DNA of 64,000 nucleotides from Lytechinus pictus (GCF_037042905.1 NC_087245.1:15068001-15132000); one strand, 5' to 3'. Positions 40,030-64,000 are shown, counted from the stretch's first letter. Numbers and translations are program-made. Notes: generated from the letters alone by a model not told the origin.

Positions 40030-40800
40030 GGTGTGGATGCCAAGCTCAAGCGTCACACACACACAAATCGATGCCGCGGTGTATATCACGTGATTATATA
40101 TGTTGCATTCGAGGATTGGGATTGGAATGAGATTCGTGGACGTCCGAAGAGCAAACCTAACGAGTGCCTAAAATACACGTTTTCGGATCGTGTAAGGCAG
40201 AGTAAGTATATAATAATACTTCTGAGGACTTTTTAATTCTGTTGTCGGTGGTTTTTAATGGCATGAACATAGCATTTTCATGGTTTCCGCAAATAAATGA
40301 AATGATACCGAGAATATGTTTGGGGAGGCCGGTTGTGTTGATGACTGATAGTGATATCTTAAAACTGACGCAAATGTGCGTGGAATGATGTCTTGTTTAC
40401 GACTTTTCTCCGATTTTTGTAGGTAAAATAATTTTAATTGTGTTAGTCAGTGAGGTTGGTAAATTCATTAAGTCGTCTAATATTTTTCCTGGTACATTTT
40501 GTCCAAATTATCATTACAAAGAGAACTTTAAAAGCACATTCGGTAATCAGAGTAGACATTCGCACTGCAATGCAGCTAGGGGATTTTACCCCAATAGGAT
40601 ACACACGCGTCTCCGCATGTACACTCGACTCTCGCTGAACCAGCGTGTGTATGTTTGTATCCCAATCCATAGACATCGTGTATACAAATGACCTCCGCCC
40701 GAACTTGTGGGGGAAGGTAATGTGTGCGTTTCGGTGGAAGACGTGCCGTGTGCTTGTTTTGTTCCGAAAACTGCTGTACTCGTCAAAGTTCTAGCAGCAA
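40030..40800. promoter_or_regulatory. CpG-richer zone, candidate SETD2 promoter and first exon(s)
   Basis: Visibly more CpG than the flanks. TCACGTGA E-box at ~40087, CCGCCC at ~40695, + strand donors A|GTAAGT (40202) and AAG|GTAATG (40717). About 5 kb upstream of exon 45518. Confidence 0.4.
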
Positions 40801-42625
40801 ATTCAAACTCAAATCCCAATATGTTGAAATTCATTTAATTTCATGATTAACAGCACATTATTACAGTCTATTCTGATGTAATTTTTGTGAGTATTTTGAG
40901 GCTAGAAATCCAATTCAAGTTGTGTCAGTCTGGTGGTGCAGTGGTGGGATTTTGTGAAAAGGTTTATTTGCAAATGGCGATCGTCAATGCAATGAGCATG
41001 GCATTGTTGAAAGCCATTCGGTTTATATTGAATGTCTTGTACATGTAAGTGCTTTGCTGGATGAAATCTATTATAAATTCTATGACCATGTGATCTGATC
41101 CACCCCAAAATATTTGGATGATTCCAGAGATCCTGACTTTGGACATTTAAAAGTTGGAGCAGACTCAATTTTCAGTTAACCTTTTATACTGTATGGTGGT
41201 GTGACCTTATTCGTGCTTTACCTTATTTTGCGCACGGTCCAATATCTCGATATCTAATTAATATATTGTAAAACTGATAATCACCAACAGAAAAAGCGAC
41301 CCAAAATTACTAAGTATGGTATTTTTCTTGAAGGTAAGGTCTCGATTTGTGAAAATATTGGCATATTTTGTTACCTTTTGCATCTGCTCCGAGAAAATCC
41401 GAACTTCTTGACAAGCATCAAGAAATCGCCAGTTTGCAAGCGCAAGCAGAGGTATCCAAAAAAAGTAAGTCAAATGTTATACCAACGGAATTTATGGCAG
41501 TTTAACCCTCATCTGATACAATTATCTCACCTTTGTCTGATTTATTTTCTAAAGCTTTGCAAAATTTAGATCACACTTTTTCATGACACTTTCAGCCAAG
41601 TGCGCACTAGTCAATCGTCATGGAATTTTGAGATCACGATACCGGCGACACCCTTGGCCTACTTTATAATTCTGTCAAGCTAATTTGACTTTGGAATCTT
41701 GCCTTCCGTTTGGTATTCATGATTTTGATTATTTTTGTGTGAACCATGAGAAATTTTTGATTGAAAATCAACTTCATGATAATTTTTATAATGTGCGCAA
41801 ATTATGGTCCCCCATCATACTAAAGTGACCTTGTCAGTTTGATTCTGTTTTTGATAATATTGATCTGCATTTATTGATGTTAGGCTGAGCTTTGCTTTAA
41901 GTAATGATTTTACTGACTTTTTAAGAAATCTTTTAAAACTTCATATTAAAAATTTAGACCCTCCAAAGTCCAAGAGTCCAATATTTTTTCCCTTCAGATT
42001 TAATATACGGTTCTACGTGTTGAAATTGCGTGATCATGGCAACAAGAGTAAACTATCAAACACTCGGCAGTAGATCAGATTTGCCTATTGACAAACATGC
42101 TGTGCTCTGATTAGCTGACTAATTTTTATGTACGGGTGCAGATCCAGGAGGTGGTGGGAAGGGGTCGTTTATTTTTATTTTTTTGCTTGTCACATTTCTT
42201 CAGTAATTCATCCGGTAAATGTCAGACTCTGGATCTGCACAAGCCCTGGGGGCGTCGCAAAACACTTTTGTGTTCGGACTGCTGCAGTAAGATCCGTGCC
42301 TGCATGAATTTGGAAAATGATGCCAATCTCGGTTTGGCTTAGCATTAGGGTATCTGTGCCTACTAGAGGATTTCAATAGAACACTTGACAACAATACACA
42401 GGCTAATATGATGAACTTCATTGGATTTGGAATAAAACATCTTAAGCTTCCCCAAACACATCTATCACTATCCAATTCATTCACAGATAATGTGATTGGG
42501 TATGCCCTGAATGCAGGCAAAAATAATTTTTTAATTTTCAAATGCTACTTTTCACAACAGATTACTTAAATATGCAACATTGGATTAGCTTTAACATTGC
42601 AGTGAATGGGGAAATTCGGGGCTCA

Positions 42626-43814
42626 TTTTTGTCTCGCCTGCATAGCAGAGCGAGACTACAGGCACCGACGGCGGCGTCGTCAACATTGAAATCTTAACCT
42701 TGGTTAAGTTTTTGAAATGTCATTATAACTTAGAAAGTATATGGACCTAGTTCATGAAACTTGGACATAAGGGTAGTGAAGTATTACTGAACATCCTATA
42801 TGAGTTTCAGGTCACATGACCAAGGTCAAAGGTCATTTAGGGTCAATGAACTTAGACCATGTTGGGGGAATCTATATCAAAATCTTAACCAAGGATAAGT
42901 TTTTAAAATGTCATAACTTCAAAATTATATGGACCTAGTTCATAAAACTTAAACATAAGGGTAATAGTGTATCACTGAATATCCTGTCTGAGTTTCACGT
43001 CACATGATTAAGGTCAAAGGTCACTTAGGGTCAACAAACTTTGGCCATGGGGGGGTTATTTGAGGAATTGTCATAACTTTAGAAGTTTATGGATCTAGTT
43101 CATGAAACTTGGACATAAGAGCAACCATGTATTCCTGAATATCATGCGCGAGTTTCGGGTCACATGACAAAGGTCACTTAGAGTCAATGAACTTTGGCCA
43201 TATTGGGGGTATTTGAGGAATTCTCATCATAATTTTGAAATTTTATGGATCTAGTTCATGAAACTTGGACATAAGAGCAATCAAGTATCCTTGAACATCC
43301 TGTGCTAGATTCAGGTCACATCAAGGTCAGAGGTTATTTAGGGTGAGCAAACTTTGGTATTAATGTTAGGGATACATGTATTTGTGGAATTGTCATCATA
43401 ACTTTAAAAGTCTATGGATTTAGATCATGAAACTTGGATATAAGAGCAGCAATATATCCCTGAATACCCTGTGTGTGTTTCAGGAACATGGCCAAGATCA
43501 AAGGTCATTTAAAGGTCAATGAACTCTGGCCGTGTTGGGAGTATGTGTTGAATTGGCATAACTTCGGAAGTTTATGGTACTTGCTCATGAAACATCGACA
43601 TAAGGGTAATCAAGTATGAATGATTGTTTTGCACATGTCTTAGGTCACATGATCATGGTCAAAGGTCATTTTTGGTCAATGGACATAATATTTTATTATC
43701 ATATTAGTGTTTTCTTTTATGAATAATTATTCATTAGCTGTTTTTCAAAGGAAGCACTGCTGCTATATCGAATTGCGTAATGCAGGCGTGACTGCCAGAT
43801 GCGTCCCACTTGTT
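42626..43814 (+). mobile_element. HINE/Tsp-like element with ~120-bp tandem units
   Basis: TTTTTGTCTCGCCTGCAT...GCGAGAC 5' sub-TIR, cggcggcg microsatellite, repeated catgaaacttggacataag...ggtcaaaggtcattta units, 3' GCAGGCGTGAC...CTTGTT. Confidence 0.75.
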
Positions 43815-45616
43815 AATTTTCCATGCTATCTTTTAGGCTAAATCATGTTAGAAATTTTTCTTTCCAGATTTTCAATGCCCTACCGATGGAAAACCAGTAT
43901 CCCAACAGATGGATGTCAGAAATTTGAACATTTAAAAAAAAAATCAAGCATTGTTATTTTCCCAACAATTAATGCTGTGAATATTAGCATGATAATAGTG
44001 TAGGGTGTGATCTACATGTACAAGGCTGATGCTTAATTTTTCCAAGGCAAAGTAATATTATTTTTTTTACATGAGGTAATTATGCTAATTTATGCGTAAA
44101 TCATACTGTGTGCTCTAATTCAACAAAAAGAGCTAGAATGCTAATTTGTGGTGTCAATATTCTTTATATGATTGCTAACGATTACAAATGAAAAAAAATT
44201 AAGGTTTGAAAAAGAATTTCTTTTGTATTTTACTGTTTTATGAATTTCTTATGTATTTATTTGTTTTAGACCTTTTGTTTTTCTTTATTTTTTTCACCAA
44301 ATTTAGAGCAGAATCTTTTTGAAGCATAATTATTCTAAAATCAATTTATTTCAGCTGATGAACATAAAAATATTTTAATAAGATGAGAAAACTCATATTG
44401 ACTTTGTACACAAATTGGAGCAAATTTGGGTCTGCATAAATTTTCAACCGCATACCTGGGCATCATAAATTCGGTCTCAAAAGATGCGCAAGACTTCAAA
44501 GTAAAGTCAGCAAGTGAAACGGTAAAAAAATTTCACGCAGCGGAACAGTGGCAGAAAATGTCTAGGTGGGGTCGATTCCCACCCCCCCCCCCCCGGCAGT
44601 TTTAGGGTTAAAGATTAAATGCCAATATGCTGATATTGAGAAAATATCAACATTTTACCCTCGGACAGGATTTGCAGTCTTTACTGACATGAATTGTTTT
44701 GTTAAAACTTTGGAATGGGGAAATGTTACTACAATACAAACGTATTAGACAGATTCTGGTGTTCCAGAATCAGTGACTTGGTCGGGCCTAGTGACCTTAA
44801 TTGGATGATCCATCCATATCTCGGGTGAATTGATTAAAAAATGCCTCTTGTCTTTTAGTCAGGATTTTATAACGCTGGTATTTAATTTGTTATAAATCTA
44901 ACCTTAAATTCTAATTTCTAATTTATCATCAGATGAAAACAAAAAACCTCAATACTAGTGATCTAGAGTGTAATAATTTTCTAAAGTAAAATCAATAACC
45001 AAGCAGGTCCTTGACTTTTGAAAAGCTTTTTCCTAATAGATATTAAACCATATTTTTACATGGTACTGGTAGATTTCAGGAGGCAAACTTTGCATATAGT
45101 TTTGATCTACAATTGGACAATAATTCTTTGAAGGACCAATTCTGGAAAAGAAATGTTATGAGAGATTAGAGATGTAAACCAATTCAACAGTCAAATTCTA
45201 ATGAAGAATTGATGGGTGAAATGGATATGCCTATACTGCCTGGTCACTGCACTAAGTGCCCTTAAATGTACTTTTGGAATGTCGTCCAATAATGTACACA
45301 TTATCTTGATCATGAATGTCGCTTGAATTAAGAATGACAAAATAACATCTTTTTCACACAGGGCAGCCATGTCCTGCACTGGTATGGACACTTTGAAAGT
45401 TTTGTGAATGCCTTTGAATTTAATAGACATTCTTTGAAATTGAGATTTCCCCTCCTCTTTTTTTGAATCCCATGCTTCTTTTCAATCTTACTATTGTTAT
45501 TGTAATTTAATTTCCAGCTTGAGCCTGCTGCCTAAGGATGGTAATGTAGCAGGGGAGGATGAGCTGCATGACAGACTTAATCTTCTGATACAGGATACAG
45601 AAGCTGATAGATCACT

Positions 45617-45694
45617 ATGGAGCCTTTCAGAATAATTCCTACCAGGCGATGGCTGAGAAGCAGCAAGAAAGCCCAAGAGGTGAACGAAAAAGGG
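45617..45694 (+). CDS. SETD2: Probable first coding part of SETD2 (exon 45518-45694): MEPFRIIPTRRWLRSSKKAQEVNEKG
   Basis: Acceptor tttccag|45518 and donor GGG|GTGAGT at 45695. ATG 45617 has a strong context (actATGg) and follows an in-frame TAG. The exon ends in phase 0, matching the giant exon. Confidence 0.55.
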
Positions 45695-46489
45695 GTGAGT
45701 CCATGCATTTATGCAGCAGTGCTTCTGGAAATTTATGAAATGAGACTGAGTGAGTGAATAAATGTTTAAAAAAAGTCTGGTGTTTTAACTTCACAAAGAA
45801 GTGTCAATTTAACCTGCAATTTCACTTCTATCAACATTGATTTTTACCAGAGTGATGCCTGTTTGAACTCTGGCCAGAGTCCATAATGGTGATGTGTGCA
45901 AGGTCCATGTATAAGCCAACTGCAACAATAGCCTGATTTCATTAAGAAGTTGTGATTAGTTACTTTGGCACATGTAGCTCTTCCTGATTGACCATCATCA
46001 GACTCGGAGCACAGACAATATATTTCTGTGCATTCATCCTGCAGGCAGGAGTATGCACTTGTACAGTAGTCCATTTATTCAGTTACAGATAACACACGCA
46101 CGCACTCATTCAAGCAGTCCATGTTAATGTGCTTTTAATACAGTGCAAGATTGAATACAGTAGGCACCCCAGACACTACATGTACAAGTACCACTGTACC
46201 ACTTTATAGACATTCACCCTCCACTTGCATTAAAGTAGCAAACATATTCAAAGCATTTATGCAAACTAACAGATTTTAAAGGAATTTAAAACATACAAGC
46301 ATGACAAAATTTCATCAAAAAAGGTTATCAGAAATAACATGGTGATGGGCAGATGGGGAAAAAAATGGCACACTGCTGTCTACAGCAAACTAGTTCTGCA
46401 TTTGAATAATTGCAGTGTGTATTGCAGACTACATTTATTGAGTTTCCCCAGTTGACTCGACTGAGTATTGAGAGGCATTCTCAAATTCA

Positions 46490-47030: not shown

Positions 47031-48961
47031 ACAGCAGCTCCGCCGTTTGTACACATATGAAATATTAGCTCATTTTGTGAGGTCAAAGTCAGAGGGCGGA
47101 TATGTCAGCTTGAAAAACCTTGTTAATAAGACAACCATCAGAAACAGGGTCCACTTGAAACTGGATGTAAGAATCCATTCCAGCACAACTTACAAAATTG
47201 CACATTTCCACAACGTACTGAAGTATGAAATGAAATCGCCTAAACCAGGAATACCAAAAAAAAGTAAGTGCTGTCCGCCGTGGTAATCACCACAATTCAA
47301 ACCTTAACTGTGTCGGATTTTACTGGTCAACAAAGAAGCACCCATTTTCTATTCTCTACAAGTTTATAAAAATATATGTAGTGATGGACATGGACCAATG
47401 TAATCTACCCAAGTCAAATATTATTAGGATTTCAGTCTGTTACATATATTTTTTTTCTATGTATACCTAAATTTTACTTTAGTTTACAAACACTGTTTGA
47501 TTTTGGGAAAATTTGACCTATGAAAAAAGAAAAAAGAGGTAAATAACTTGCTTTGCATAATATATTCTGATATTAATAAAGTGTTTTGATGGCTTGAGCA
47601 ACATATTTAGGTATTTAGTTGACTGCACATAAAATGGAGAGGGGGGGGGGGGGGGATAAAATATGGGTCAGGGACTTAAGATGAAATTTTATGACCCTTA
47701 TTTCCTCAGGGAACCTGGTGAGTTGTATTGGGATAATGAGAATAATGTCTGTTTTGTAGCAATTTGGGACACACTTGAATATATCTACATGTAGCAATGT
47801 TGTTCATGACCAAGGCTTTATTTAACATGCCTAGAAAATCCCACAAAAATCTTTATTGGATAAAATTCAACCTCTGCACCCCCTCCAACAAAAAAAGAAT
47901 GATGTACCAGTAGCCGGTAGGCCTATTTATGTACTTTATCTCCAGAAATATTTGAATTGCCATGAAAAATTTGGTATCACATTAACATGAATAATTTTAT
48001 CATGCTCTTAAATTAATTTTGAAAGGCATATCTTTTAATGCATTAAATTTTGAGATTTGTTGAAATACACCATGGGCACAATTTTGGCTAATATTGATTT
48101 CACATACATCACAGATATTTCATTACATACATGAAATTTCAGCTTTCTCGTGATAATTAGTCACATTAAGGCTTGTGTGCATTTGGGAGTGACAGAGATT
48201 TGATGCATGAATTTGCATCACAAATTGATTAGAAGTTTGCACTGTTTCGATAGTATTTAACAATGTTCTCTACAGTCCTATAAAAAAACCTGTGACACAA
48301 AGATGTTTTGTGTAACTATTTTTGAAATTTGCTTTGTATATTGCATTAGGATACCAGGAAATTGTTAAAATTTCGTTTTTACAATCCTTTAGATCCATAA
48401 TCAAAAGAGTGAAAATCTGATGAGATTATAAATCCATTGTTCTCATTAATTTAAAGTTATCGTATTTGGTTTTGATTAGATTGAAATGGTATCATTTTTT
48501 TGTTGTTGTTGACATTTTGAAAATTTGTAGTGTCTTTGCTGATGGATGGCCTGCGGTTTAATTTCAAATTCACGGGTGTAGTGGTAATAAGTGAACTTAA
48601 TATTTTTGGATCAGAAAATAAATAATATTATTCATGGTCTAAAACATAGTTTTCATATCACAGAATAAATTCAATGAGAATTGATCTTGCATTCACTTTA
48701 TTTAATTTTTTAAAAGCCATTATTGCTCAAATGTAAATTGCTTTATAACTCCTTTCTCTTTTAAAACCCTGAAATGGCATAATATGACATGCTTTCTAAG
48801 ATTGCCAGTTGACTGCAAGAACATTCTTGCTGCTTTGTTTTGTTTAAGTGTGGAAAATTCTATTTTATGTATATTCTAATATTTTGTGAAAGCTCAACCT
48901 ACATGTATTGAATACCTAGGAAGGGCAAACATATTTCAAGAGCATCTTTTAAAAGTAACAT

Positions 48962-49696
48962 TACAATTCTCGCTACCCCAAATAGCGATTTCGGCGAGAT
49001 CCAGGAAAATCCCTGCAACGCGCATTGCATTATGGGATAGCTTTTCGGTATTACAACTTCCTGTTCGGAAGTCCAATGCACTGTTTTGCCATTCAGATCA
49101 ACAGTGCCGTCACGCACAACAACACAACGTTGCTTTCGCTTTGAAAGTTCGTGATCACAACCCTCTCTTTCACGATACAGTTTAACGGCCTTTTCTGCTA
49201 AAGTCATTAATTCTGCCTGACGCTTTCCATTGCACGGTATTCCTCTGTCAGTTAAGATTTTTTTCAGTTCCGAAACTGATTTTTTATCCATTTTGTGGTC
49301 GACGAAAAATTGAACGGAATGAATGCTGTATATATTTAGTGTCTAGTCGAATACGATCGTGATGTCAGGCCGGTCGCTAAATGCAAAATTTTAAGATATT
49401 CATTTTTTGTTTACTTTTTTATAACCAAATAAAAACATTAATAAAAATTATTTTCACGTATTTTTATTTATAATTCAAATGGAATCAAAACTGACCAAAT
49501 TAAATAAAAAGTATTATAATTTGTACATGTTGCGCTGATTGGCATCGATTTCAGCGTGGTGGAAAACTTAGTATCGCGAACCTCGCGCGAGCATGACTCT
49601 GAACCGGAAGTGGTGATGACGACCCGACGGAGTGAAAATTATCTCGTCTCGCGCATTATGAGATTTTTGTTCCTATTTGGGGTAGCGAGAATTGCC
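48962..49696 (-). mobile_element. ISL2EU-like non-autonomous element carrying the 5' part of a SAP-domain ORF (ATG 49291)
   Basis: 22-bp TIR CAATTCTCGCTACCCCAAATAG, right end GCC|AT with AT on the left flank. ORF MDKKSVSELKKILTDRGIPCNGKRQAELMTL is SAP-like. Confidence 0.65.
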
Positions 49697-49850: not shown

Positions 49851-52800
49851 GATCAACTTGGGATTCTTGGAGCTAAGCCTAAGGCTGCCAGCCCGCATCC
49901 AGATCCCTCTACCTTGGCAAAGGAAATGGAAGAGTTTGAAAAACTAATGCAGCTTGGCTCTACTGAAGGGGATGATGGTTCAGATGCGAAAGACACACAC
50001 AAGAATGAAAAAGCAGAGAAACCTATAAAAGAAGCAGGAGATAAATATGTTCCTGACCAACCAACCACATCTCTAGAACCTTACGAACCAACACAGCCAA
50101 CAGCATCACCAGTGATTCCTACCAATGTTCGACAGACCTCTAAGTCACCTGAAGCATATGAACCAGATGAACCAACTCCAGTTGATGAGGTGTACACCCC
50201 TGATCAACCAACTTCACTTCAAAGTTCTGATCCATACGAGCCAGAGCAACCGACTGATGAGCCTATGGTTGTAGAGGACTCTGATATTTCTGCTAGCGCC
50301 AAGAGAGAAGAATCGGAAGTAGAAGCTGATATGCCCCAACTTCAGTTAGATTCGGTTAGCTCTGGTTATCATGGACAAGTTGAAAAGGGAGGGGAACATG
50401 CTGCTAGGGAAAACACAGATTCAACACCAGCTGAAAGTGTTCCTAAACATGAAGGAAATAAATCTGAACAAGAAAATCTTCTTCCTGAAGAATGGTTACG
50501 GAAAAAGGAGAAAAAGAAAAAGCATGGCAAGCACAAAAAACCTCTGGTCGAATGGCGGTTGGGAGTTCTCAGGAAAGATTATGTCATCAAAGATTTCAAA
50601 AGCTTTCCTGTTGATGAAAAGTTAATGGCTACAACAAAGCATAAATGGAACAATGAGAGTGAAGTGGAACACCTGAAAGTTCTTCATTCAGGGGATGGGA
50701 GCCAAACTGACACCTCTGAAGTATCGGGTATGACTTCACCTGCAATCGCCCAAAGTGACAGTGAACTTGAAAGTGAGCAAAATACAAGTGGTGAAATTGA
50801 TGCTATTGGAAGAGCAGCTGAAGAAAATACACTTGAAGGTGATGATAGTATTCATAGTTCAAAGGACAATGCCATTGTGCATGCAGAGTCTAAATGTGCA
50901 GATGAAGAAATAAAGAAGGGAGAATATGGTGAAACAGGAAATGTGAAAGAGAGTGCTGTACCTGAAAAAGTGCAGTCAAGTTCTGTCCTTGATGCCCAAC
51001 TTGAAAAAGATACCAGACTCGATTCTGTCGAGAAAAGTGAGGACTTAGATGCTAAAAAGAATCAAGAAAAACAGGAAGTTCAAACAACTGGTAAAGAAGA
51101 AAAAAAGATCAAGTCAGAACCAGAAGAAAGTTCAAATAGAAGAAGCACAAGGCAATCAAGCCGGAGAGCAAGAAGAGATTCAGGTGAGAATAAAACGGAT
51201 ACTGATCAGAGAAGTGATAAAAAGGATGATGACTCTGGCCGAAGAAGATCAAGGAGAACTGAAAGACATAAAGACGATTCAGATGATGAGAAGAGAAAAG
51301 AATCTGATAGAAATAAAGCAGAATCAGACAGAACTAGAAATGAAACTAGGAGACGCTCGCTGAGAAGAGACAGATTTAGGGATAACTCTGATGATGAAAG
51401 AAGAGAGGAAAGTAGAGAGGGAAGGCGAAGAGGGAGGAGTGACAGCCGGGAAAGAAGGGAAAGAAGTAACAGTAGAGAAAGACGGAGGTATAGAGATGAT
51501 GATGACAGATATGACAGATATGATAGAGGACGTAGGACGAGACGTAGTGACAGGAGAAGCATGGACAGAACTGACGACCGGAGGTCTAGGGAGGATGATC
51601 GAAGAAATGAAAGAAGTTTATCAAGGGAGCAGGATGAAAGGAGGAGAAAGGAAAAGAATGATAAAGATTTGAAGAAAGAAGTGGACAAAACCAAGGAGGA
51701 AAGTAAAGTAACTGCAGAGAAGAGAACCGAAAAGGCTGATTTAAGGGATGATGACAAGTTGCAAGGGAAAGGTAAAACTGATGCAAAGATAACGGAAAGT
51801 AATACTGTTCCAGAAAAGGACCAAAATAACAAGCAGAATACTTCGAATAAGGCTACCGGGAGAGTACCCATTAAATTTAATTTCACATCAAGGGCAGTTC
51901 GAAGAAGCACTCGCAGTGCAGTCAAAGCAAAGAGTGGAGTATTCGAAGATGACGAGGACGAGGATGAAAAACCACTCTCAGAGTTGCAGAATTTATGTGA
52001 TGAGAAGGAAGCTAAATCTTCAAAATCAGAACCATCAGAGGATAAAGCTCCAGCTGTTACTCGCAGTAAAAGTCGAGAAGGTTATCCAGTTGAAGAACCA
52101 ACGGAAGTCAACAAAGTCAGTCAGATAACCTCTGTTCCTTGTGAAACAGGCACATCAACCAGATCCAAAAGCAGTCAAAAAGTAGAAAATCTGTTTGAGA
52201 TCACACTCAGGAAGGAATCTAAAAAAGATCATGGATCGGAATCGGACAGTGGTGCAGAATTGAGTCTGATGGGTCTAGGAGAGGCCCCCAGTCTTTATCC
52301 CGAAAGTATTCTTGAAAGTCAGGTTGAAATGGAACTCTTAGCAAACGCATTTTCCTCCACTGATACAGAAGCAGAGATAGAAATTGAAAAAGTGTTCTGT
52401 AAGAAAATCGAAAATGATACTAATGCAAAGGAAGAAGAGAGTTCACCAAAACAAGAAGACAGAGTGGTAGACTCTAGGAGTGAAATTGTTGACATGGAAG
52501 TTGAGGAGGAACAGCATGATACCAGTACTATTGAAGTCCTTTCACACCCACAGTTATCAGGTGTGGAAGGTACAGCTAATGATTCAATATCAACTGATAG
52601 TCATAATAATACAGAGAACAGAACTTTTACTGAAGAGGTGCCAATTATTCAAGGAGACCAAACCAATACAGATGACAAAGAGTTAATCAATAGCCATAGT
52701 CCTCAGCAGAATGGGAAAACTTGTTCTGAAGAATTGCCATTTGCTTCAGAAGGACAAACCAGTTCAGCAAATAATACAAACCTAATTGAGCATCCTCAGG

Positions 52801-54533
52801 AGGTCAGTAGAACTTGTTTGTATAATGCTCCACTTGTATCAGAAAAAGAAAAGAGTTCAGTGAACAATGCAAAGTTGATTGATATTTTTGATAGTCAAAG
52901 TCCATGTGAAAATATTAGAACTTGCTCTGATGAAGTACCCACTACTTTAGACGAACAAGAAAGTACAGTGAAGGATACTGAGTTGATCGATAGTCAGAGT
53001 CCTCTGGACATCAGTGAAGTTCCAGGTCCTTTTGAAGAAAAAACCAGTACAGATGATACTAGAAAATTGATAGATGACCATACTCTACAGGATAATGAAA
53101 GAGCTTCTAAAGACAAGGCGTCGGGCAGTATCAAAGAAAAATCGAGTTCAGAAATTGATGTAAATGGAAGACAGGGTCAAAATGAAATTCTTCAGAACAG
53201 GGATATTGATGTTGATAAAATGTTGAATGTTCCAGAGATCAAAATAGTACCCCCTCCCGATGAAACCCTTGACCAAGCTTGCTCAGAAGCAGCAGGTGAA
53301 AGTACAGAAGTAAAAGAAATTGAGACTGCAAATACATTATTAGAAACTGATCAAAGCGATACTGAGATTGTCTCACCGTTGAAGGCAAGAGGCTCGAAGG
53401 AGCATGAAGATGACTATACCAAAACTGAATCTGAATCTGATGATGCAATGACATTGGAGGTCATTGACCTAATGGCTGGTACAGCATACACAACGTCAAA
53501 GGTGTCTGTTGTCTTACCACCTGGAAATTCTGATGCTGATGCCAAAATTGAAGATATCTCAGAAGCAATTGTAGATAATGAGGCGATGTCACATGAACAG
53601 AATGTAACAATTTTGGACAAAGTAATGGCAGCGTCGTGTCCTATACGTCCACCTAGCAGTGATACCAAATTTTCTGATGGTAACACCGAATGTATTGTTC
53701 TTGACCACAGTACTAGTGAACAGATTGTAACCGTCCAGAAGTCAAGTGCAGAAGTTTCTTCAGAAGTTATGCACAGTAGTGAGAACGTCATGCCTTTCAC
53801 TGAGGTTGTTAGTACATATCTTCCATCTGAAAAGCCTACCATAGAAGTATTCAACAAAGAATCTGCCATGAATGAGGATGAAGTTTTGGAAGCAAATGTA
53901 CCATCCTCAAACATTGACTCTGCCAAAAATGTTGAAACAAGTATCGGGATTGTACCATCTCTCTCTGAAGAAGGCACAGAAATTTCCAGTACTCAAGAAG
54001 CTGTGACTGCTATTACTGACCCACCAACAAGACATATCATCCAAGAAGGGCCTTCAGTTAGTAAACGTAAAAGGAAGTCTAGGTGGGAGGTGGTTAGCAC
54101 AGAAATCCCTTCAGAAACTCCACCTCAGATGGCTGTTAATGTAGACCAAAGCCAACAAAATAAGCCATCCTTGATTAACATGACCGGTGAGCCAGTATTG
54201 CAGACAGAGGCAAAAGCTGAAGAAAGCAAATTGGCCCCAGTTGAAGCCCTCATTGGAGAGGAAATTAGCAGTTCTCCAAGCACCATTCAAATTCAACCAT
54301 CAGATGTTAGGCTTACTGTGGATTCCTCAGAGGTGGAAAGAGAGATCTCCCCGACAAAGAAAGTGAAGGTAGATCCTGATGCAACTATTGGTGCAACTGC
54401 TGACTACTCTTCTGGCCAAGATGGCAGCACTTCTAACTTGATTCTTGACGCAGGAGAGAGCAAGATGGATGCAACATACCATTCTCGTGGACTGGACCTT
54501 GAGGTGAACGCAGCAGGAGATAATCAGGCAGTG
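49851..54533 (+). CDS. SETD2: SETD2 giant exon (4683 bp, 1561 aa): acidic, disordered N-terminal region with an RS/RD/RE-rich block
   Basis: Lies in the 1596-aa ORF 49788..54578. Acceptor ttctatttcag|GAT, donor GTG|GTGAGG, phase 0/0, in frame with the next exon. Comparable to the large N-terminal exon of vertebrate SETD2. Confidence 0.9.
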
Positions 54534-55199
54534 GTGAGGCTCATTTTTTATCTCCTGAATACTGTGATATATATATAAAATATAAGCAGATGATTCTCAT
54601 TCCATTTCAACTTCCTATTAAAATTGAATGGTCCCATGTTGACAGCTCTCTAGAACATTCAATTTGTAATTCATTTAAACGTTTAATTTGAGCATTTAAT
54701 TTGTAATTTATTAAAACATTTCATTCTTCGATATTCACTTAAAAAGAAGTTGACAGTGATATTAAATTTGGGTTCAAGCAGAAAAATTGTTTGAACAAAG
54801 TACTTATTTTAATACATGACATGTCCAGTGCATGATTATTTCATCTTCCATGTTCATGAAGTTTTGTATCTTATCCCAAATGATTTGGGCAAGTTCCATT
54901 GGTACTCTGCAGTATATAAGGCACTGCAGGACACTATAGAAATTTCATTTGCAATTTTTCATACGGGTGTATGTTTTTTTTTCTATTTTTTCATTTTAGA
55001 AAATGAACTGTTCAGTAAATTTTAGCACATGTTATTACCCAAGAAATTATGATCAGTATTGATTTGCAGTGTGGTAAGTAAAAAATTAAAGAAATCTTCA
55101 AAAATTATTAATTGTCATTCAGCTCTCCAGTAAATATGACACACAGATAATCAGCATGTTCTCTATTTGAATGTTATTTGCACCCAATTTTTCATGTAG

Positions 55200-55654
55200 A
55201 TCAAACCTGAAGATTTTGTTGAAAAGGAAGAAGCTGGCATAATCATGGAAGAAAGTAAAGACACAGGAGAAGTTACCAAGCCAGAACCGGGGACAGAGGA
55301 GGAATCAATGGAAGAAGGAGAACTGGATTCTGATGTTAAGGAGGAGATGACGGAGAAACCTTGGGATGATAGCACAGGGATCGAACAAGGAGAAATCAAA
55401 GATGACGGTGATGAGGAAGTTGAAGATAGTCGGGAAGAAAGGCCCAGACGCTCCAGCGAAGACAAGGAGAATACACCTTTCGATGACTACTGGGCCGGGG
55501 ATGGAAGGAGAGAGGTCAGGGAAAGACCAAAGGAGGAGAGGAGGGAGAGTCGTGAAGAGAGGCAGAGACGTCAGTACCAGGAGTGGGGTATGGTTGAGAG
55601 GAGCAAGATGCCTCGCTTTTCAGAGTTGACTGAGAATTACTACTTGACAGAAAG
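55200..55654 (+). CDS. SETD2: SETD2 exon, pre-AWS (IKPEDF...FSELTENYYLTER)
   Basis: Acceptor ttcatgtag|ATC, donor AG|GTATAT (phase 2). ENYYLTER matches SETD2 ENVYLTER. Confidence 0.92.
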
Positions 55655-55776
55655 GTATATATTTCTATTATATAAATTATGATTCCTTGCAATGAAGCCC
55701 TTCCGCTTACCCAACGATGTATAAATGTCAAGTAGTGTCGTGAAAAATCTTAACTGAACTCGTGATGATTACTTAA

Positions 55777-58791: not shown

Positions 58792-58989
58792 TATATTGCC
58801 TATTTCACACTTATTGATAATATAGTGACACAATTAAATTATCTTTCAATTTTGTTCTACTAGTACAAGACTCTTGACATGCAAATAAGGCGAGGTGATA
58901 TCCCATAATGTCCATTCCTGATATTGCTTACACAAGCCCAGCAGATTTTCTTGAGTGAGTTAAAAATGTTATGTCTCTCTGTCCTGCAG

Positions 58990-59118
58990 GCGAAGATCAA
59001 AAGCTGGTAAGGAAGCAAGGAGAATGGTATGCTGCTGTACAACATCTAGAGAGGAAAGAAGGCGTGGCATCCAGGCTTGTGGGGAAGATTGTCTCAACAG
59101 AGTTCTCATGCTTGAATG
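58990..59118 (+). CDS. SETD2: SETD2 exon, AWS domain (RRSKAGKEARRMVCCC...CGEDCLNRVLMLEC)
   Basis: Acceptor gtcctgcag|G. AWS Cys pattern. Ends TG|GCAAGT (GC donor). Confidence 0.93.
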
Positions 59119-59551
59119 GCAAGTCTTTCTCTTAAATTCATCTAGAAAAATCTAATGATGGCAGAAGATTATCAGGTTTTGCTCTTAGCAGTATTATATC
59201 AATTTCATTTCAATTTTCAGTGACCAATTATCTAGGCAAGTGACTCTCATGAAATCCTTAGTAGAGTGTTAAATAACATGGCTTTGACACAAAAAGTCAT
59301 TGTCAACATATCCTGCTCCAAAACGTAACTCCAGATAGTTGATATTTGTGATTTGTGAAAGATAAACTGTCAGGGTTATTTTGTCTATGTACAGTAAACA
59401 GTTTACTTTGAGAACCACAGGTTTCCTTGAAAAATTGAGGTGCTGCAAGTATAAGTTTTAGTTCCTGTCATTTCAATATACAACATTTCATATCTCTATA
59501 TTAAAGGCTTGCTAACATTTCTACTTCCACCTGTGTTTTTCTCTTTAACAG

Positions 59552-59603
59552 TGGGTCACGATGTCCATGTGGAGATTACTGTACCAACAAACGTTTCCAA
59601 AAA
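59552..59603 (+). CDS. SETD2: SETD2 exon, end of AWS (CGSRCPCGDYCTNKRFQK)
   Basis: Acceptor ctctttaacag|T, donor AAA|GTGAGT. Conserved CxNxRFQ motif. Confidence 0.93.
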
Positions 59604-59960
59604 GTGAGTGCTATTATTATTTCATTTGAATATGTTTATTTTTAGTTAAGGTCTGGATCTAGTATTAATAATTAAGTACCTCTCCAATAATTGGTAAATC
59701 CTAAATAAGCAAACTTTTTGTAAATCTGTAAATAGCGTAAAATGTTTTATCATTATTTTGGTTAAATGTGATAAGACTGCTGGTACACAATCTAAATGTT
59801 GTATTCAGAGTCAGGTTCCATATTGTTTTAGCAATTCAGGATTTGAGCCAGTGTGGTTCTATCTGGCTATGGTATGTTGCATTTAAACATTGAAGTATTT
59901 GGTCAATTGGTAATTTACTATTTTGATGATCATATTTTATAATTTGTTTGATTTTTCTAG

Positions 59961-60037
59961 AGAGAACATGCCCGAGTTGGAGTTTTCTATGCAGAAGGAA
60001 AAGGGCATGGTTTAAAAACAAAAGAAGAACTAAAAGA
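59961..60037 (+). CDS. SETD2: SETD2 exon, start of SET (REHARVGVFYAEGKGHGLKTKEELK)
   Basis: Acceptor atttttctag|, donor GA|GTGAGT. KGxG SAM-binding motif. Confidence 0.92.
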
Positions 60038-60393
60038 GTGAGTTATTAGTCATTTCTTGTCTTTGTTTAACTTTCCTATGATTGAAAACATTTTTATGAA
60101 GAAAAAGTAATGTGCTTAAGAAAAAGGAATATTAAAATAAGACAGTGTGAAATGTCATTTGAAGTTGTAGCAGTATATAGACCGAGTAATTCTGATTTCA
60201 TATGCTCTTTATCCTAGTTTGTGTTTTGTTTGAATAAATGTTATCAATAGTAACTCTCAATCAGATGCATATTGTGTTATGGCAATAAGGATTAAATGTT
60301 GTTTGCTTAGAAAGCTTCATTGCAATTTCAGATACTCTTTGCATGGTATCATGCTCTAAATTTTATGATTTTGGGGTAATATTCTTCCATCAG

Positions 60394-60517
60394 AAATGAG
60401 TTCGTAATGGAATATGTTGGAGAAGTTCTGAACTTCCATGAGTTCAAGCATCGAGCCAAGCAGTACAGCAAAGACAAGAACTTACATTTCTATTTCATGG
60501 CGCTCAAGTCAGATGAG
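60394..60517 (+). CDS. SETD2: SETD2 exon, SET (ENEFVMEYVGEVL...HFYFMALKSDE)
   Basis: Acceptor ttccatcag|, donor GAG|GTGAGT. EYxGEV and YFMAL motifs. Confidence 0.95.
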
Positions 60518-61076
60518 GTGAGTGATAATGGTCATTTTAGAAGAGTAATATATCAATGGTGAAGATTGTACCCAGATTCAATCAAAAGGAGGCAATAACC
60601 ATGCATTTTCGATTGTTTAATCTCCAACTGTTTAATAATGTGCATGACACTGCAATCAGCTTACAATGTATATCATAAGTTATCCTTCAAATTTTTAACA
60701 GGATGGGCCTTGTACAAAGCCGTTGACTTTTTTTGAGAATTAAAAATTTCAGAAGTAGTAAATTTTGCTGATGTTTTACTTCGAAGGACCTTGTAAATAG
60801 GTATTATTGTTACCTTTTTTAATTCATGATCCACAGCATTTAAAAACTGGTCTCTTTTATTAGCTACATCTTGTTTGTAATGAACTGAAATAGATTGTAT
60901 TACATGTATTACATCATATTAAATCCTTGCAAACTGTAACTGGGTAGTCCCGATACAAAACCCTTCCAAATTATCTATAGATTGGCGATAAAGGCCAAAT
61001 TATTATTACAAATTGTACACAGTTTAGCTTAAAGTTATGTTGTTAATTTTTTAATATGCCTTTCATTTTCTTTCAG

Positions 61077-61154
61077 ATCATTGATGCTACTGAGAAAGGG
61101 AATGTATCTCGATTCATGAACCACAGCTGTGATCCGAATTGTGAAACACAAAAG
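61077..61154 (+). CDS. SETD2: SETD2 exon, SET ([26 protein letters not shown])
   Basis: Acceptor ttttctttcag|, donor AAG|GTAAAT. RFxNHSCxPN signature. Confidence 0.96.
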
Positions 61155-61621
61155 GTAAATTTTCAAGAAAATTCTTTAAAACAGTTCATTGTTTGTTCCA
61201 TTTGGATAAGAAGGTGATAATGAATGTAGAAATAAAACCAGAAATTAGACTCTCCATGTGGTAACAGTATCATGGTTATTGAGTAAATATCAATGACAGT
61301 AATCAAGAGGAAGGGCATATGAGAGATGTAAATACATTTTGCTTGAAGTGCATTATGTGAATCATGAGACAATATGGAAAGTGTCTCGTTTGGAAATACT
61401 GAATTAATCAGATGCATGTTTACGTACTACAGTAAAACCAACACAGGCATTAAAGTTAAACACAGTCTTGTCTGCAGTTTTCACAACAAACTACCTTTAG
61501 TATTGTTTATTGGTATCAAACAGCTAATTTTATGCTGGAATTAATAAAAACAAAGAAGAGATAGTACAGATATATTTAATGTGTATAAGATTAAAACAAA
61601 ATGCAATTTTCTGTTTAATAG

Positions 61622-61719
61622 TGGACAGTGAACGGTCAGCTTCGAGTAGGATTCTTTACCAAGAGACAGGTCAAACCTGGTGAGGAGCTTACATTTGACT
61701 ACCAGTTTGAAGTTTATGG
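61622..61719 (+). CDS. SETD2: SETD2 exon, end of SET (WTVNGQLRVGFFTKRQVKPGEELTFDYQFEVYG)
   Basis: Acceptor tttaatag|, donor GG|GTAAGT. ELTFDY motif. Confidence 0.96.
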
Positions 61720-62335
61720 GTAAGTCAAACATGTTTCAATTATGTTGTCAGGCCGATGTAAGTTTAGAAATTCTTAGGTAGGATAGCAAGACATTTTTTT
61801 ACTACTGAGATAATAATGATAATGTTAACATTGTTTGATATTGTGTTTTTTTATACTAGTTTTACTATCTTTGTTTTCAGAAATGGTGAGATTAATTGCA
61901 CTGCTTTTCTTGATATACACGCATATGACTCAAGTCTTTAAAAAAAATGTGTGTAAAACTAAAAGATGCATGAAAAACCCTCCCATAGTAATTATTCCAT
62001 TATGTCACTGCTCGTGTCATTCGATGTCATAATTATATGTTATAGTGTCTTGAGTTTTTTACTGCAACTCTTAACAAATTATTTGCACATACTTGATTTT
62101 ATTTGCACTAACTATTGAGAGAAATAAATTGGTTTGAAAATTTTTCTTGCCTTGTGATGAAAAATACACTGGATGGGTGGGACTATAGACAATTATTGCT
62201 TTTTAGCAAAAGATGTGATTCCCTATAAAAGTGAATCACACCTTACTGCATTCAAAGCTAATCATTTGACAAGGGTTTGGGAGTGAGCTGTGTAGAAGAT
62301 AATGAAGCAATTGTCTTTGCTTTATCTTTTTTCAG

Positions 62336-62486
62336 TCAGGAAGCTCAGAAGTGTCTTTGTGGATCTGATAAGTGTAGGGGTGTGATTGGCAAACAGAAGA
62401 AACAGAAGGAAGGCAAAGATACAACACCTAGGAGAAGAGGGAGTGTTGGAGAGAAGCGAAGGAAAGAAGCTTTTACAGATATCACA
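62336..62486 (+). CDS. SETD2: SETD2 exon, post-SET (QEAQKCLCGSDKCRGVIG...FTDIT)
   Basis: Acceptor tcttttttcag|, donor ACA|GTAAGT. CxCx4C post-SET motif. Confidence 0.94.
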
Positions 62487-62566
62487 GTAAGTGAAATCTC
62501 TTCTCTTGATAATCAACATTTCCAGTCACTTTGAGACAGTTTCTTCCACAGTTAAATATTGTAAAC

Positions 62567-62740: not shown

Positions 62741-63171
62741 AACATATATTTTTCTTTAATTTCTTTATATTTGGTTTCTTATTGCATTTTTCTTTTGTCA
62801 CTTCGTATCGTCATTGTTTCCACTCTGTGTCTGTTCTTGGTTATGGAGTATTCTTTAGCCTAGGTACTTAAGCATGTGGTCATCTGGAAAAGCATGTAAG
62901 AACCCACCCCCCCAAAAAAAAAATGTTTATATGCAATTCATTCCTTGCTATAAACAGCGGTCTGGTGCATATTGATGAATTGAATAGGACGAAACTTCTG
63001 GATTTTGTTCAAATTCAGTAAAAACAAACCTGTAATATATTCCATGCTCTCCTTGAAATAGACAGTTCTGGGTCCCGTCTTACGAAGAGTTGCGATTGAT
63101 CCAATCAATCGTAACTCTATGGAAATCCATCAGTGTCATAATTTTTTCTACAGGAAATTTGCACAATGTCC

Positions 63172-64000
63172 TTTTTGTCTCGCCTGCATAGCAGAACGAG
63201 ACTATAGGCGCCGCTTTTCCGACGGCGGCGGCGGCGGCGTCAACATCAAATCTTAACCTAAGGTTAAGTTTTTGAAATTACATCATAACTTAAAAAGTAT
63301 ATGGACCTAGTTCATGAAACTTGGACATAAGCTTAATCAAGTATTACTGAATATCCTGCCTGAGTTTCAGGTCACATGACCAAGGTCAAAGGTCATTTAG
63401 GGTCAATGAACTTAGACCATGTTGGGAGAATTATTTTCAAAATCTTAACCGAAGGTTAAGTTTTTGAAATGACATCATAACTTAGAAAGTATATGGACCT
63501 AGTTCATGAAACTTGGGCATAAGGTTAATCAAGTATTACTGAACATCCTGCTTGAGTTTCAGGTCACGTGACCAAGGTCAAAGGTCATTTAGGGTCAATG
63601 AACTTTGGTCAAGTTGGTATTTGTTGAATTACTATCATAACTTAAAAAATTTATGGATCTATTTCATGAAACTTGGACATAAGGTTAATCAAGTACCACT
63701 GAATATCCTGTGCGAGTTTCAGGTCACATGACAATGGTCAATGGTCATTTACGGTCAATGAACTTTGGCCGTGTTGGGGATATTTGTTAAATTACCATCC
63801 TAACTCTGAAAGTTTATGGATCTAGTTCATAAAACTTGGACATAAGAGTAATCAAGTATCAGTGAGCATCCTGTACGAGTTTCAGGTCACATGACCATGG
63901 TCAAAGGTCATTAAAGGTCAATGAACTTTGGCCGTGTGAGGGTATTTGTTGAATTACCATCCTAACTCTGAAAGTTTATGGATCTAGTTCATACAACTTG
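63172..64000 (+). mobile_element. HINE/Tsp-like element, same family as 42626; runs off the window
   Basis: TTTTTGTCTCGCCTGCATAGCAGAACGAGAC, (GGC)n, ~120-bp tandem units. Confidence 0.8.

Follow-up and report, generated by a model that had tools for sequence, protein, structure and literature searches.

A short CTD-like motif of bilaterian SETD2, also present in human SCAF1 and PHRF1, and its five-copy array in the sea urchin Lytechinus pictus

The SETD2 locus and its repeat array

The window analysed is a stretch of 64,000 nucleotides from Lytechinus pictus (GCF_037042905.1 NC_087245.1:15068001-15132000), with positions counted from its first letter, and it carries a SETD2 gene on the + strand that continues past the end of the window. 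The assignment to SETD2, made in a preliminary description of this DNA, holds: two exons downstream of the repeat array give human SETD2 as their best match in the PDB (E 6e-13 and 6e-8). With the SET exon, human SETD2 reaches 50.8 bits, compared with 18 for NSD2 and 16.6 for ASH1L, and SETD2 is the sole match of the AWS exon. The AWS-SET-postSET core is closest to SETD2, and not to NSD or ASH1L, which places the protein among the SETD2/Set2 H3K36 methyltransferases. A search of cluster representatives returned a protein of 3124 amino acids, P0005, named as L. pictus SETD2-like, with AWS, SET, WW and SRI domains. By tblastn, this protein maps to the window from 45617 to approximately 62528, with 95-100% identity in most exons. 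The C-terminal domains of SETD2/Set2 are present in P0005 (Pfam WW at residues 2955-2984 and SRI at residues 3036-3116), their exons lying beyond the window end.

A probable non-coding first exon of SETD2, together with the promoter, is located at approximately 40100-40201 (+), where a CpG-rich sequence is followed by a GTAAGT donor and RNA is found on one strand at a depth of 1.6-2.6. The first coding exon of the annotated model (45617..45694, +) encodes residues 1-26 with 100% identity to P0005 by tblastn, and RNA in the corresponding bin (45212-45875) is again confined to one strand (depth 6.6/8.9). This exon lacks the motif described below, unlike the SETD2 N-terminus of starfish, crinoids and vertebrates. 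It is followed by a giant exon at 49851..54533 (+), supported by tblastn and RNA reads, which encodes residues 27-1587, a low-complexity N-terminal region that holds the array. RNA contigs from two organisms span the giant exon and resume at 55199. The next exon (55200..55655, +), placed by RNA contigs and tblastn, encodes residues about 1588-1739 and leads into the AWS domain. Seven small exons within 58934..62528 (+; approximate tblastn limits) encode the domains AWS, SET and post-SET, as judged from PDB, Pfam and tblastn matches.

The introns hold sequences of other origin. In the intron before the giant exon, 48902-49342 (-) contains an open frame of 147 codons with a SAP domain (Pfam E 1.3e-5). 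RNA reads from both strands, together with numerous variant letters, suggest that this frame is a fragment of a multicopy mobile element and not a SETD2 exon. A repeat that is highly transcribed and has an internal tandem unit is present in two intronic copies, at approximately 42600-43800 and 63150-64000 (+); over the former, the RNA depth is in the thousands, mostly on one strand, and derives from other genomic copies.

Translation of 50046-50255 (+) gives YVPDQPTTSLEPYEPTQPTASPVIPTNVRQTSKSPEAYEPDEPTPVDEVYTPDQPTSLQSSDPYEPEQPT, and confirms the five heptads of the form Y-x-P-x-x-P-T reported within these 70 amino acids: YVPDQPT, YEPTQPT, YEPDEPT, YTPDQPT and YEPEQPT. An acidic residue is located at position -2 in 5/5 copies. 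From this residue to the threonine, the copies, placed by translation and tblastn of P0005 and all on the + strand, occupy 50040..50066 (D-K-Y-V-P-D-Q-P-T, Tyr92 of P0005), 50076..50102 (E-P-Y-E-P-T-Q-P-T, Tyr104), 50151..50177 (E-A-Y-E-P-D-E-P-T, Tyr129), 50187..50213 (E-V-Y-T-P-D-Q-P-T, Tyr141) and 50229..50255 (D-P-Y-E-P-E-Q-P-T, Tyr155). The array corresponds to residues 92-161 of P0005, and its tyrosines are all five of those present between residues 92 and 155. No further Y-x-P-x-x-P-[TS] is found in the open frame, given as 1575 residues and as 1615 codons. Shuffling the exon yields at most one motif (20,000 shuffles) and shuffling its first 200 amino acids at most two (100,000 shuffles), while the 70-amino-acid stretch itself reaches three once in 100,000; five were never obtained. 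Stranded RNA in the bin 49860-50523 is found on one strand only, with depths of 30.7 and 34.5 versus 0 in two raw runs labelled with the same species. The five motifs are real, transcribed and not the product of chance.

The preliminary description also noted that positions 2, 4 and 5 of the heptad are often Glu or Asp. This is borne out at position 2 (V, E, E, T, E; 3/5) and position 4 (4/5), and fails at position 5 (Q, Q, E, Q, Q; 1/5). Serine is absent from every heptad position of the urchin copies, and the residues after the threonine in the five copies are mostly non-acidic. Nor are the copies arranged as tandem heptads in the style of the CTD, being spaced by 12, 25, 12 and 14 amino acids. 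Pairs of copies have 14-20 of 27 bases and 1-4 of 9 third codon positions in common, so the copies are old at the DNA level; Tandem Repeats Finder reports no tandem repeat across them. The array is predicted to lie in a disordered SETD2 N-terminus, as an AlphaFold model of P0005 residues 52-343 has a mean pLDDT of 45 and no secondary structure over the array, a weak prediction built on an alignment of 3 sequences only. Pfam gives no match on the giant exon.

Conservation and relocation of the motif in animal SETD2

On sequence comparison, the five urchin repeats are extra copies of a short motif that is borne once at the start of SETD2 in many animals. The full motif is longer than the heptad first described and reads [DE]-x-Y-[D/E/S]-P-x-x-P-T; in its typical form it makes up the first eleven or twelve residues of the protein. 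It was surveyed in the best 120 of 569 SETD2 proteins, a bird-heavy sample whose counts are not independent because of the many birds. Within these 120 proteins, Y-x-P-x-x-P-[TS] is present in 51 (177/2400 when shuffled), and Y-x-P-x-x-P-T falls inside the first 70 residues in 43 (3/6000 shuffles). The other 69 have no motif, and 29 of them are without a starting methionine, i.e., partial models. Among the 53 distinct copies, position -2 is D or E in 50, and position 7 is T in 50 and S in 3. Position 2 is D in 26, E in 10 and S in 8, and the residue that follows Thr7 is D or E in 26/53. When 52 distinct copies are counted, position 2 is acidic in 38 and position 5 in 7.

The motif begins SETD2 in mammals, birds, reptiles, frogs, sharks, lamprey, amphioxus, crinoids, starfish, molluscs, a nemertean and chelicerates. 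The sequence MGDFYDPEHPT opens the protein in birds, snakes, turtles, frogs and lungfish and occurs in two rodents after a short leader. Human SETD2 presumably bears it as well, in agreement with the rodent sequences. Sharks and rays begin with MGDAYDPEHPT, lamprey with MGDIYDPLNPT and amphioxus with MSDHYYNPESPT. The corresponding starts are MTEEYDPAFPT in crinoids, MADEYDPAFPT in starfish, MADFYDPADPT in the nemertean Lineus, MADIYDPAFPT, MEEYDPADPT and MMDDYDPACPT in molluscs, and MTEIYDPAYPT and MSEIYDPAYPT in scorpion and horseshoe crab. The proteins examined included none that was recognised as coming from a hemichordate, cnidarian, sponge or fungus. Conservation in relatives had been put forward as the test of the urchin motif, and it is found in SETD2 from chelicerates to mammals. 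The earlier statement that no such array was known for vertebrate SETD2 has to be revised, as vertebrate SETD2 does bear the motif, in the form of one invariant N-terminal copy. Judged from sequence, the finding is broader than first described, a bilaterian motif of SETD2, SCAF1 and PHRF1 with the vertebrates included.

Both the position and the number of copies have shifted during evolution. The sea-urchin models (Lytechinus and three Diadema) have a different first exon and no terminal copy, and carry internal arrays instead. There are five copies in L. pictus and in a second urchin protein, P0003, four in a third, P0004, and three in Diadema. Identity to L. pictus is 25/25 in the core and 17/27 in the linkers for P0003, 21/25 and 5/27 for P0004, and 17/25 and 3/27 for Diadema; on this comparison, the core positions outlast the linkers, which turn over. 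In the window, no frame contains an ancestral-type terminal exon with Y-x-P-x-x-P-T besides the five copies. Among bivalves, Saccostrea and three relatives likewise have no terminal copy and possess 3-4 clustered internal copies, and the oyster copies YSPSHPT and YSPSRPT are the most CTD-like. In Mytilus, three internal copies accompany a terminal one. Spacings in the seven arrays listed all fall within 9-38 amino acids, and none equals 7. It appears that the array was re-expanded independently in urchins and bivalves. A linear motif under selection would be expected to behave in this way, disappearing from one site and arising at another, as seen in two phyla.

The element also appears to be switchable through alternative first exons. 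Automatic gene models predict isoforms with and without the terminal motif in Acanthaster, Patiria, Limulus, Centruroides, Scyliorhinus and Petromyzon; it is present in 1/3 predicted isoforms of Acanthaster, 1/5 of Patiria and 4/5 of Centruroides.

In certain lineages, the motif is missing altogether. None of 32 insect and shrimp SETD2 proteins carries Y-x-P-x-x-P-T, and SETD2 therefore works without it in these animals; that of Diachasma has one unrelated-looking YGPGIPS. The motif is absent from all 13 Octopus entries (several of them partial) and from single models of Owenia, Liolophura, Dreissena and Pinctada. In Ixodes, histidine replaces the tyrosine in 7/8 models: residues 1-9 of P0161, P0313-P0317 and P0319 read MHEPESPTG, which corresponds to the motif with His for Tyr and without the upstream acid.

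SCAF1, PHRF1 and known mimics of the CTD

The same nine-residue element is present in two human proteins besides SETD2. SCAF1 contains DIYDPFHPT and a second copy, KYDPFEPT, and PHRF1 contains EVYDPSDPT within SEVYDPSDPTGS, as recorded in a phosphoproteome table (PMC4893159, Table S6A) that gives windows around phosphosites only and is not a proteome scan. As a control, the tripeptides YDP, YNP and YEP were followed in the same source. Among the matches listed (YDP, 30 of 31 places in 12 proteins; YNP, 17 of 17 places in 7 proteins; YEP, 30 of 35 places in 14 proteins), the continuation x-x-P-T is found only in SCAF1 and PHRF1 of the 33 proteins (77 of 83 places), although for ATF4 and MAP1B the peptide ends too early to judge. 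The available text of a SCAF1 preprint (10.64898/2025.12.08.691990) names SETD2, SCAF1, PHRF1, RECQL5 and SCAF11 together as SRI-domain proteins. In the table, the windows of SCAF11 (30 of 51 places) and RECQL5 (19 of 19 places) are free of the motif and cover a small part of either protein. From composition, the strict 9-mer is expected in approximately 1-2.5 per 10,000 proteins of such size, so its presence in three of the five SRI proteins is not due to chance, even if SCAF1 and PHRF1 are one family. The human segments match SETD2 in the 9-mer and in the class of protein, an SRI-domain CTD binder. They are internal, whereas the SETD2 copy is mostly terminal. When shorter proteins were searched with the Mytilus array, not one of the 2545 candidates scored, and no invertebrate SCAF1 or PHRF1 was obtained.

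A full-text literature search, with most subscription papers outside its coverage, found no description of the motif, and there is none in the available text of PMC11879057, PMC13451535, PMC10767929 and PMC13370473. The last of these, the ASHI motif atlas, brings up SETD2 there solely in connection with its WW domain. The SCAF1 and PHRF1 segments were not found described as a motif in the literature either, and they are a parallel and not prior art.

By class, the element is probably a CTD-mimic linear motif. It has Y1, P3 and P6 in common with the Pol II CTD heptad YSPTSPS, so that the likeness pointed out for the urchin copies is retained. It differs from this heptad in being non-tandem, with Ser2 mostly replaced by D/E and Ser5 by Q, H, F or Y. 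A second relative is ZNF768, in which a CTD-like array that retains Y1, P3 and P6 and has an acidic position 2 occupies the N-terminus of a nuclear protein; the array has been proposed as a pSer2 mimic (PMC6344866) and is also treated in PMC9834408, as far as the available text of both goes. ZNF768 has 10-20 tandem heptads with a conserved Ser5 and a free position 7, and is restricted to placental mammals. The SETD2 copies, in contrast, are separated by linkers, lack the Ser5-Pro6 pairing (there is no Ser5 in the window copies), have a fixed Thr7 and an acid at -2, and are spread across Bilateria.

The closest precedent may be the Nrd1-interacting motif (NIM) of yeast Trf4, Sen1 and Mpp6, ELM class LIG_Nrd1CID_NIM_1 (PMC10767929, available text). 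According to the text available of PMC7110113, its features are an upstream acid, a tyrosine followed by a turn-forming or extended segment, and a disordered context. At the sequence level, the upstream acid and the disordered context appear to be present in the SETD2 motif, and the turn may be. The acid N-terminal to the tyrosine is found in 5/5 window copies and 50/53 distinct copies, as a single acid versus the long run of yeast. A D, S or N at position 2, compatible with a turn, is found in 36/53 copies, versus V/E/E/T/E in the window. The low pLDDT, with the reservation made above, and the lack of a Pfam domain point to disorder. The two also have in common the proline two residues after the tyrosine and their occurrence in transcription or RNA-processing factors. 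However, the yeast motifs have no conserved Pro6-Thr7 in that text, which the SETD2 motif does; they occur singly in budding yeast and their reader is proven, whereas the SETD2 motif is metazoan, resides in a histone methyltransferase, forms arrays and has a candidate reader only. It is not assigned as an NIM here.

Other resemblances were dropped. PxQxT is the TRAF-type consensus, and four urchin copies match it, but Gln at position 5 is limited to urchins and Mytilus. A PDB search with the array returned designed Kelch propellers, spurious matches through the YDP/YEP turns only, and searching with a profile built from 13 motif stretches yielded no match below E 1.2. One weak match to a viral glycoprotein G in the ESM Atlas (0.75) was rejected.

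Candidate readers of the motif

One proposal for the urchin array is that low-complexity sequence in a disordered region was duplicated neutrally and serves no selected function. The region is indeed acidic, proline-rich and predicted to be disordered, urchins differ in copy number (3 to 5), and a period of roughly 12 residues hints at an old duplication. Yet the cores are kept while the linkers and third codon positions have diverged, with no tandem repeat across the copies, and the 9-mer is a fixed part of the SETD2 N-terminus in animals from chelicerates to mammals, and recurs in SCAF1 and PHRF1. This conservation largely refutes neutrality, which is left as very improbable. The preliminary description had suggested a possible decoy of the phosphorylated CTD that might autoinhibit the SRI or WW domain intramolecularly. 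In the form considered here, the motif would mask the SRI or WW domain of its own molecule or family until the doubly phosphorylated CTD displaces it. This idea stays alive because the same motif is found in two other SRI-domain proteins, such that SETD2, SCAF1 and PHRF1, all the strict-motif carriers known here, have this domain. The agreement of Y1, P3 and P6 with the heptad and the opposite charges of a basic SRI region (22 K/R versus 13 D/E) and an acidic array (16 D/E versus 3 K/R) are also in its favor. Against it, an SRI diheptad ligand needs adjacent heptads in register, and the closest spacing of copies is 9 amino acids. The charge at positions 2 and 5 that a pSer2/pSer5 diheptad would call for is not seen, given how seldom position 5 is acidic in the window and elsewhere. 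WW domains bind PPxY or polyproline runs, and the motif has neither. Insect and shrimp SETD2 retain a closely similar SRI with the motif absent, and multiple copies would be of little use to one SRI located 2900 residues away. In the available text of the SCAF1 preprint (10.64898/2025.12.08.691990), the SCAF1-SRI bound only phosphorylated CTD in vitro, with a strong preference for pSer2+pSer5, and the SCAF4 CID in place of the SRI restored SCAF1 function. With an acid so seldom at position 5 and with non-adjacent copies, whereas the SCAF1-SRI prefers pSer2+pSer5, the motif would make a poor pSer2/pSer5 decoy. In this respect the finding is weaker than first described, and a masking role toward the SRI domain is doubtful.

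The likeness to the CTD could also be incidental. The motif would then be bound by a non-CTD reader, such as a WD40 or E3-ligase adaptor common to SETD2, SCAF1 and PHRF1, or a protein that reads phospho-Thr after an acidophilic kinase has acted (CK2/FHA). The fixed Pro6-Thr7, with a near-invariant threonine that is often followed by an acid, would fit such a reader, as would the acid at -2, which coincides with Pro6 in the CTD register. It has also been reported that the N-terminal region of human SETD2 governs its proteasomal turnover (PMC11626819, available text). On the other hand, the motif is confined, so far as seen, to CTD-binding proteins, its Y-x-P-x-x-P spacing is kept exactly, and the window copies seldom have an acid after the threonine. 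A reader of this kind is unlikely, while deserving more credence than the SRI decoy.

In the reading preferred here, the motif would be a CTD-like docking peptide that needs no phosphorylation and is bound in trans by a CTD reader of the CID type, in the manner of the yeast NIM. It is held tentatively, with somewhat less than an even chance of being correct, and was chosen because the sequence shows NIM-like features and because Pol II bound by SCAF4/8 brings down SCAF1 and PHRF1 as well. Of the two roles raised for the urchin copies, recruitment of CTD readers is the one that now seems likeliest. A CID, for which RPRD1A/1B, RPRD2, SCAF4/8 and PCF11 are candidates, would accommodate Tyr1 and Pro3 in its hydrophobic groove, and the acids at -2 and +2 would replace phosphoserine, as in yeast NIMs. 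SETD2, SCAF1 and PHRF1 could in this way gain a second contact with the elongation complex besides their own SRI. Alternatively, the peptide may be a hand-off site that competes with the CTD. The urchin copies, with a weaker position 2 (V/E/T and not D), might offset this by avidity.

SCAF1 and PHRF1 were enriched in SCAF4/SCAF8-bound Pol II along with RPRD1A/1B/2, which the authors put down to shared Pol II binding; SETD2 is unnamed in the main text as available (PMC9795356). The enrichment is compatible with docking, as indirect evidence. Sen1 demonstrates that a CID can accept an extended peptide, per the available text of PMC7110113. Two features of the motif itself speak against docking to a CID: the urchin position 2 is without the D/N/S of an S/N-P-x-x turn, and the invariant Pro6-Thr7 lies outside the NIM description in that text and may point to another reader.

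A 2024 review (PMC11626819, available text) describes residues 1-1443 of human SETD2 as "obscure", its disordered regions as being without sequence similarity to other proteins, and its N-terminus as dispensable for catalytic activity. The last point counts against the docking reading, as does the absence of the motif from insect and shrimp SETD2. For SCAF1, the available preprint text (10.64898/2025.12.08.691990) argues that specificity must reside in an unannotated disordered part. The present element of nine residues is fixed at the start of vertebrate SETD2 and common to SCAF1 and PHRF1, and it offers a route to a missing partner that would join H3K36 methylation to CTD readers and 3′-end control. 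The urchin array is the least important part of the finding, and may be of use as a natural high-avidity bait. A more far-reaching proposal is that the CTD-like peptide of SRI proteins gates their own CTD binding or hands these proteins between CTD readers, and that animals tune SETD2 recruitment by using or omitting the small first exon with the motif or, in sea urchins and oysters, through an internal multivalent array. This is speculative and rather unlikely. If such a built-in gating peptide were true, a major tumour suppressor would have a regulatory switch within its "obscure" N-terminus, and this switch would be common to SCAF1 and PHRF1.

Other short elements were observed in the same protein. 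In the exon at 55200-55655 (+), EEGEL is found at P0005 residue 1625, with a looser EQGEI nearby. We take these to resemble the EDGEI-type motif that binds ARS2. In the best 120 of 569 SETD2 proteins, [ED][ED]GE[ILV] occurs in 13, including urchins, starfish and several molluscs, and in 0 of the 7 vertebrate proteins listed. Further upstream, P0005 residues ~232-305 (approximately 50470-50690, +) contain a block, SEQENLLPEEWLRKKEKKKK...HGKHKKPLVEWRLGVLRKDY...FPVDEKLMATTKHKWN, that is near-invariant in three urchin proteins while its flanks diverge. Pfam gives no match on it, and a role in nuclear localisation or in binding is possible. Just upstream of the array, at P0005 residues 52-60 (approximately 49926-49952, +), a short predicted helix, (K)EMEEFEKLM, is kept between sea urchins and starfish (Acanthaster, Patiria) and is possibly a second binding motif.
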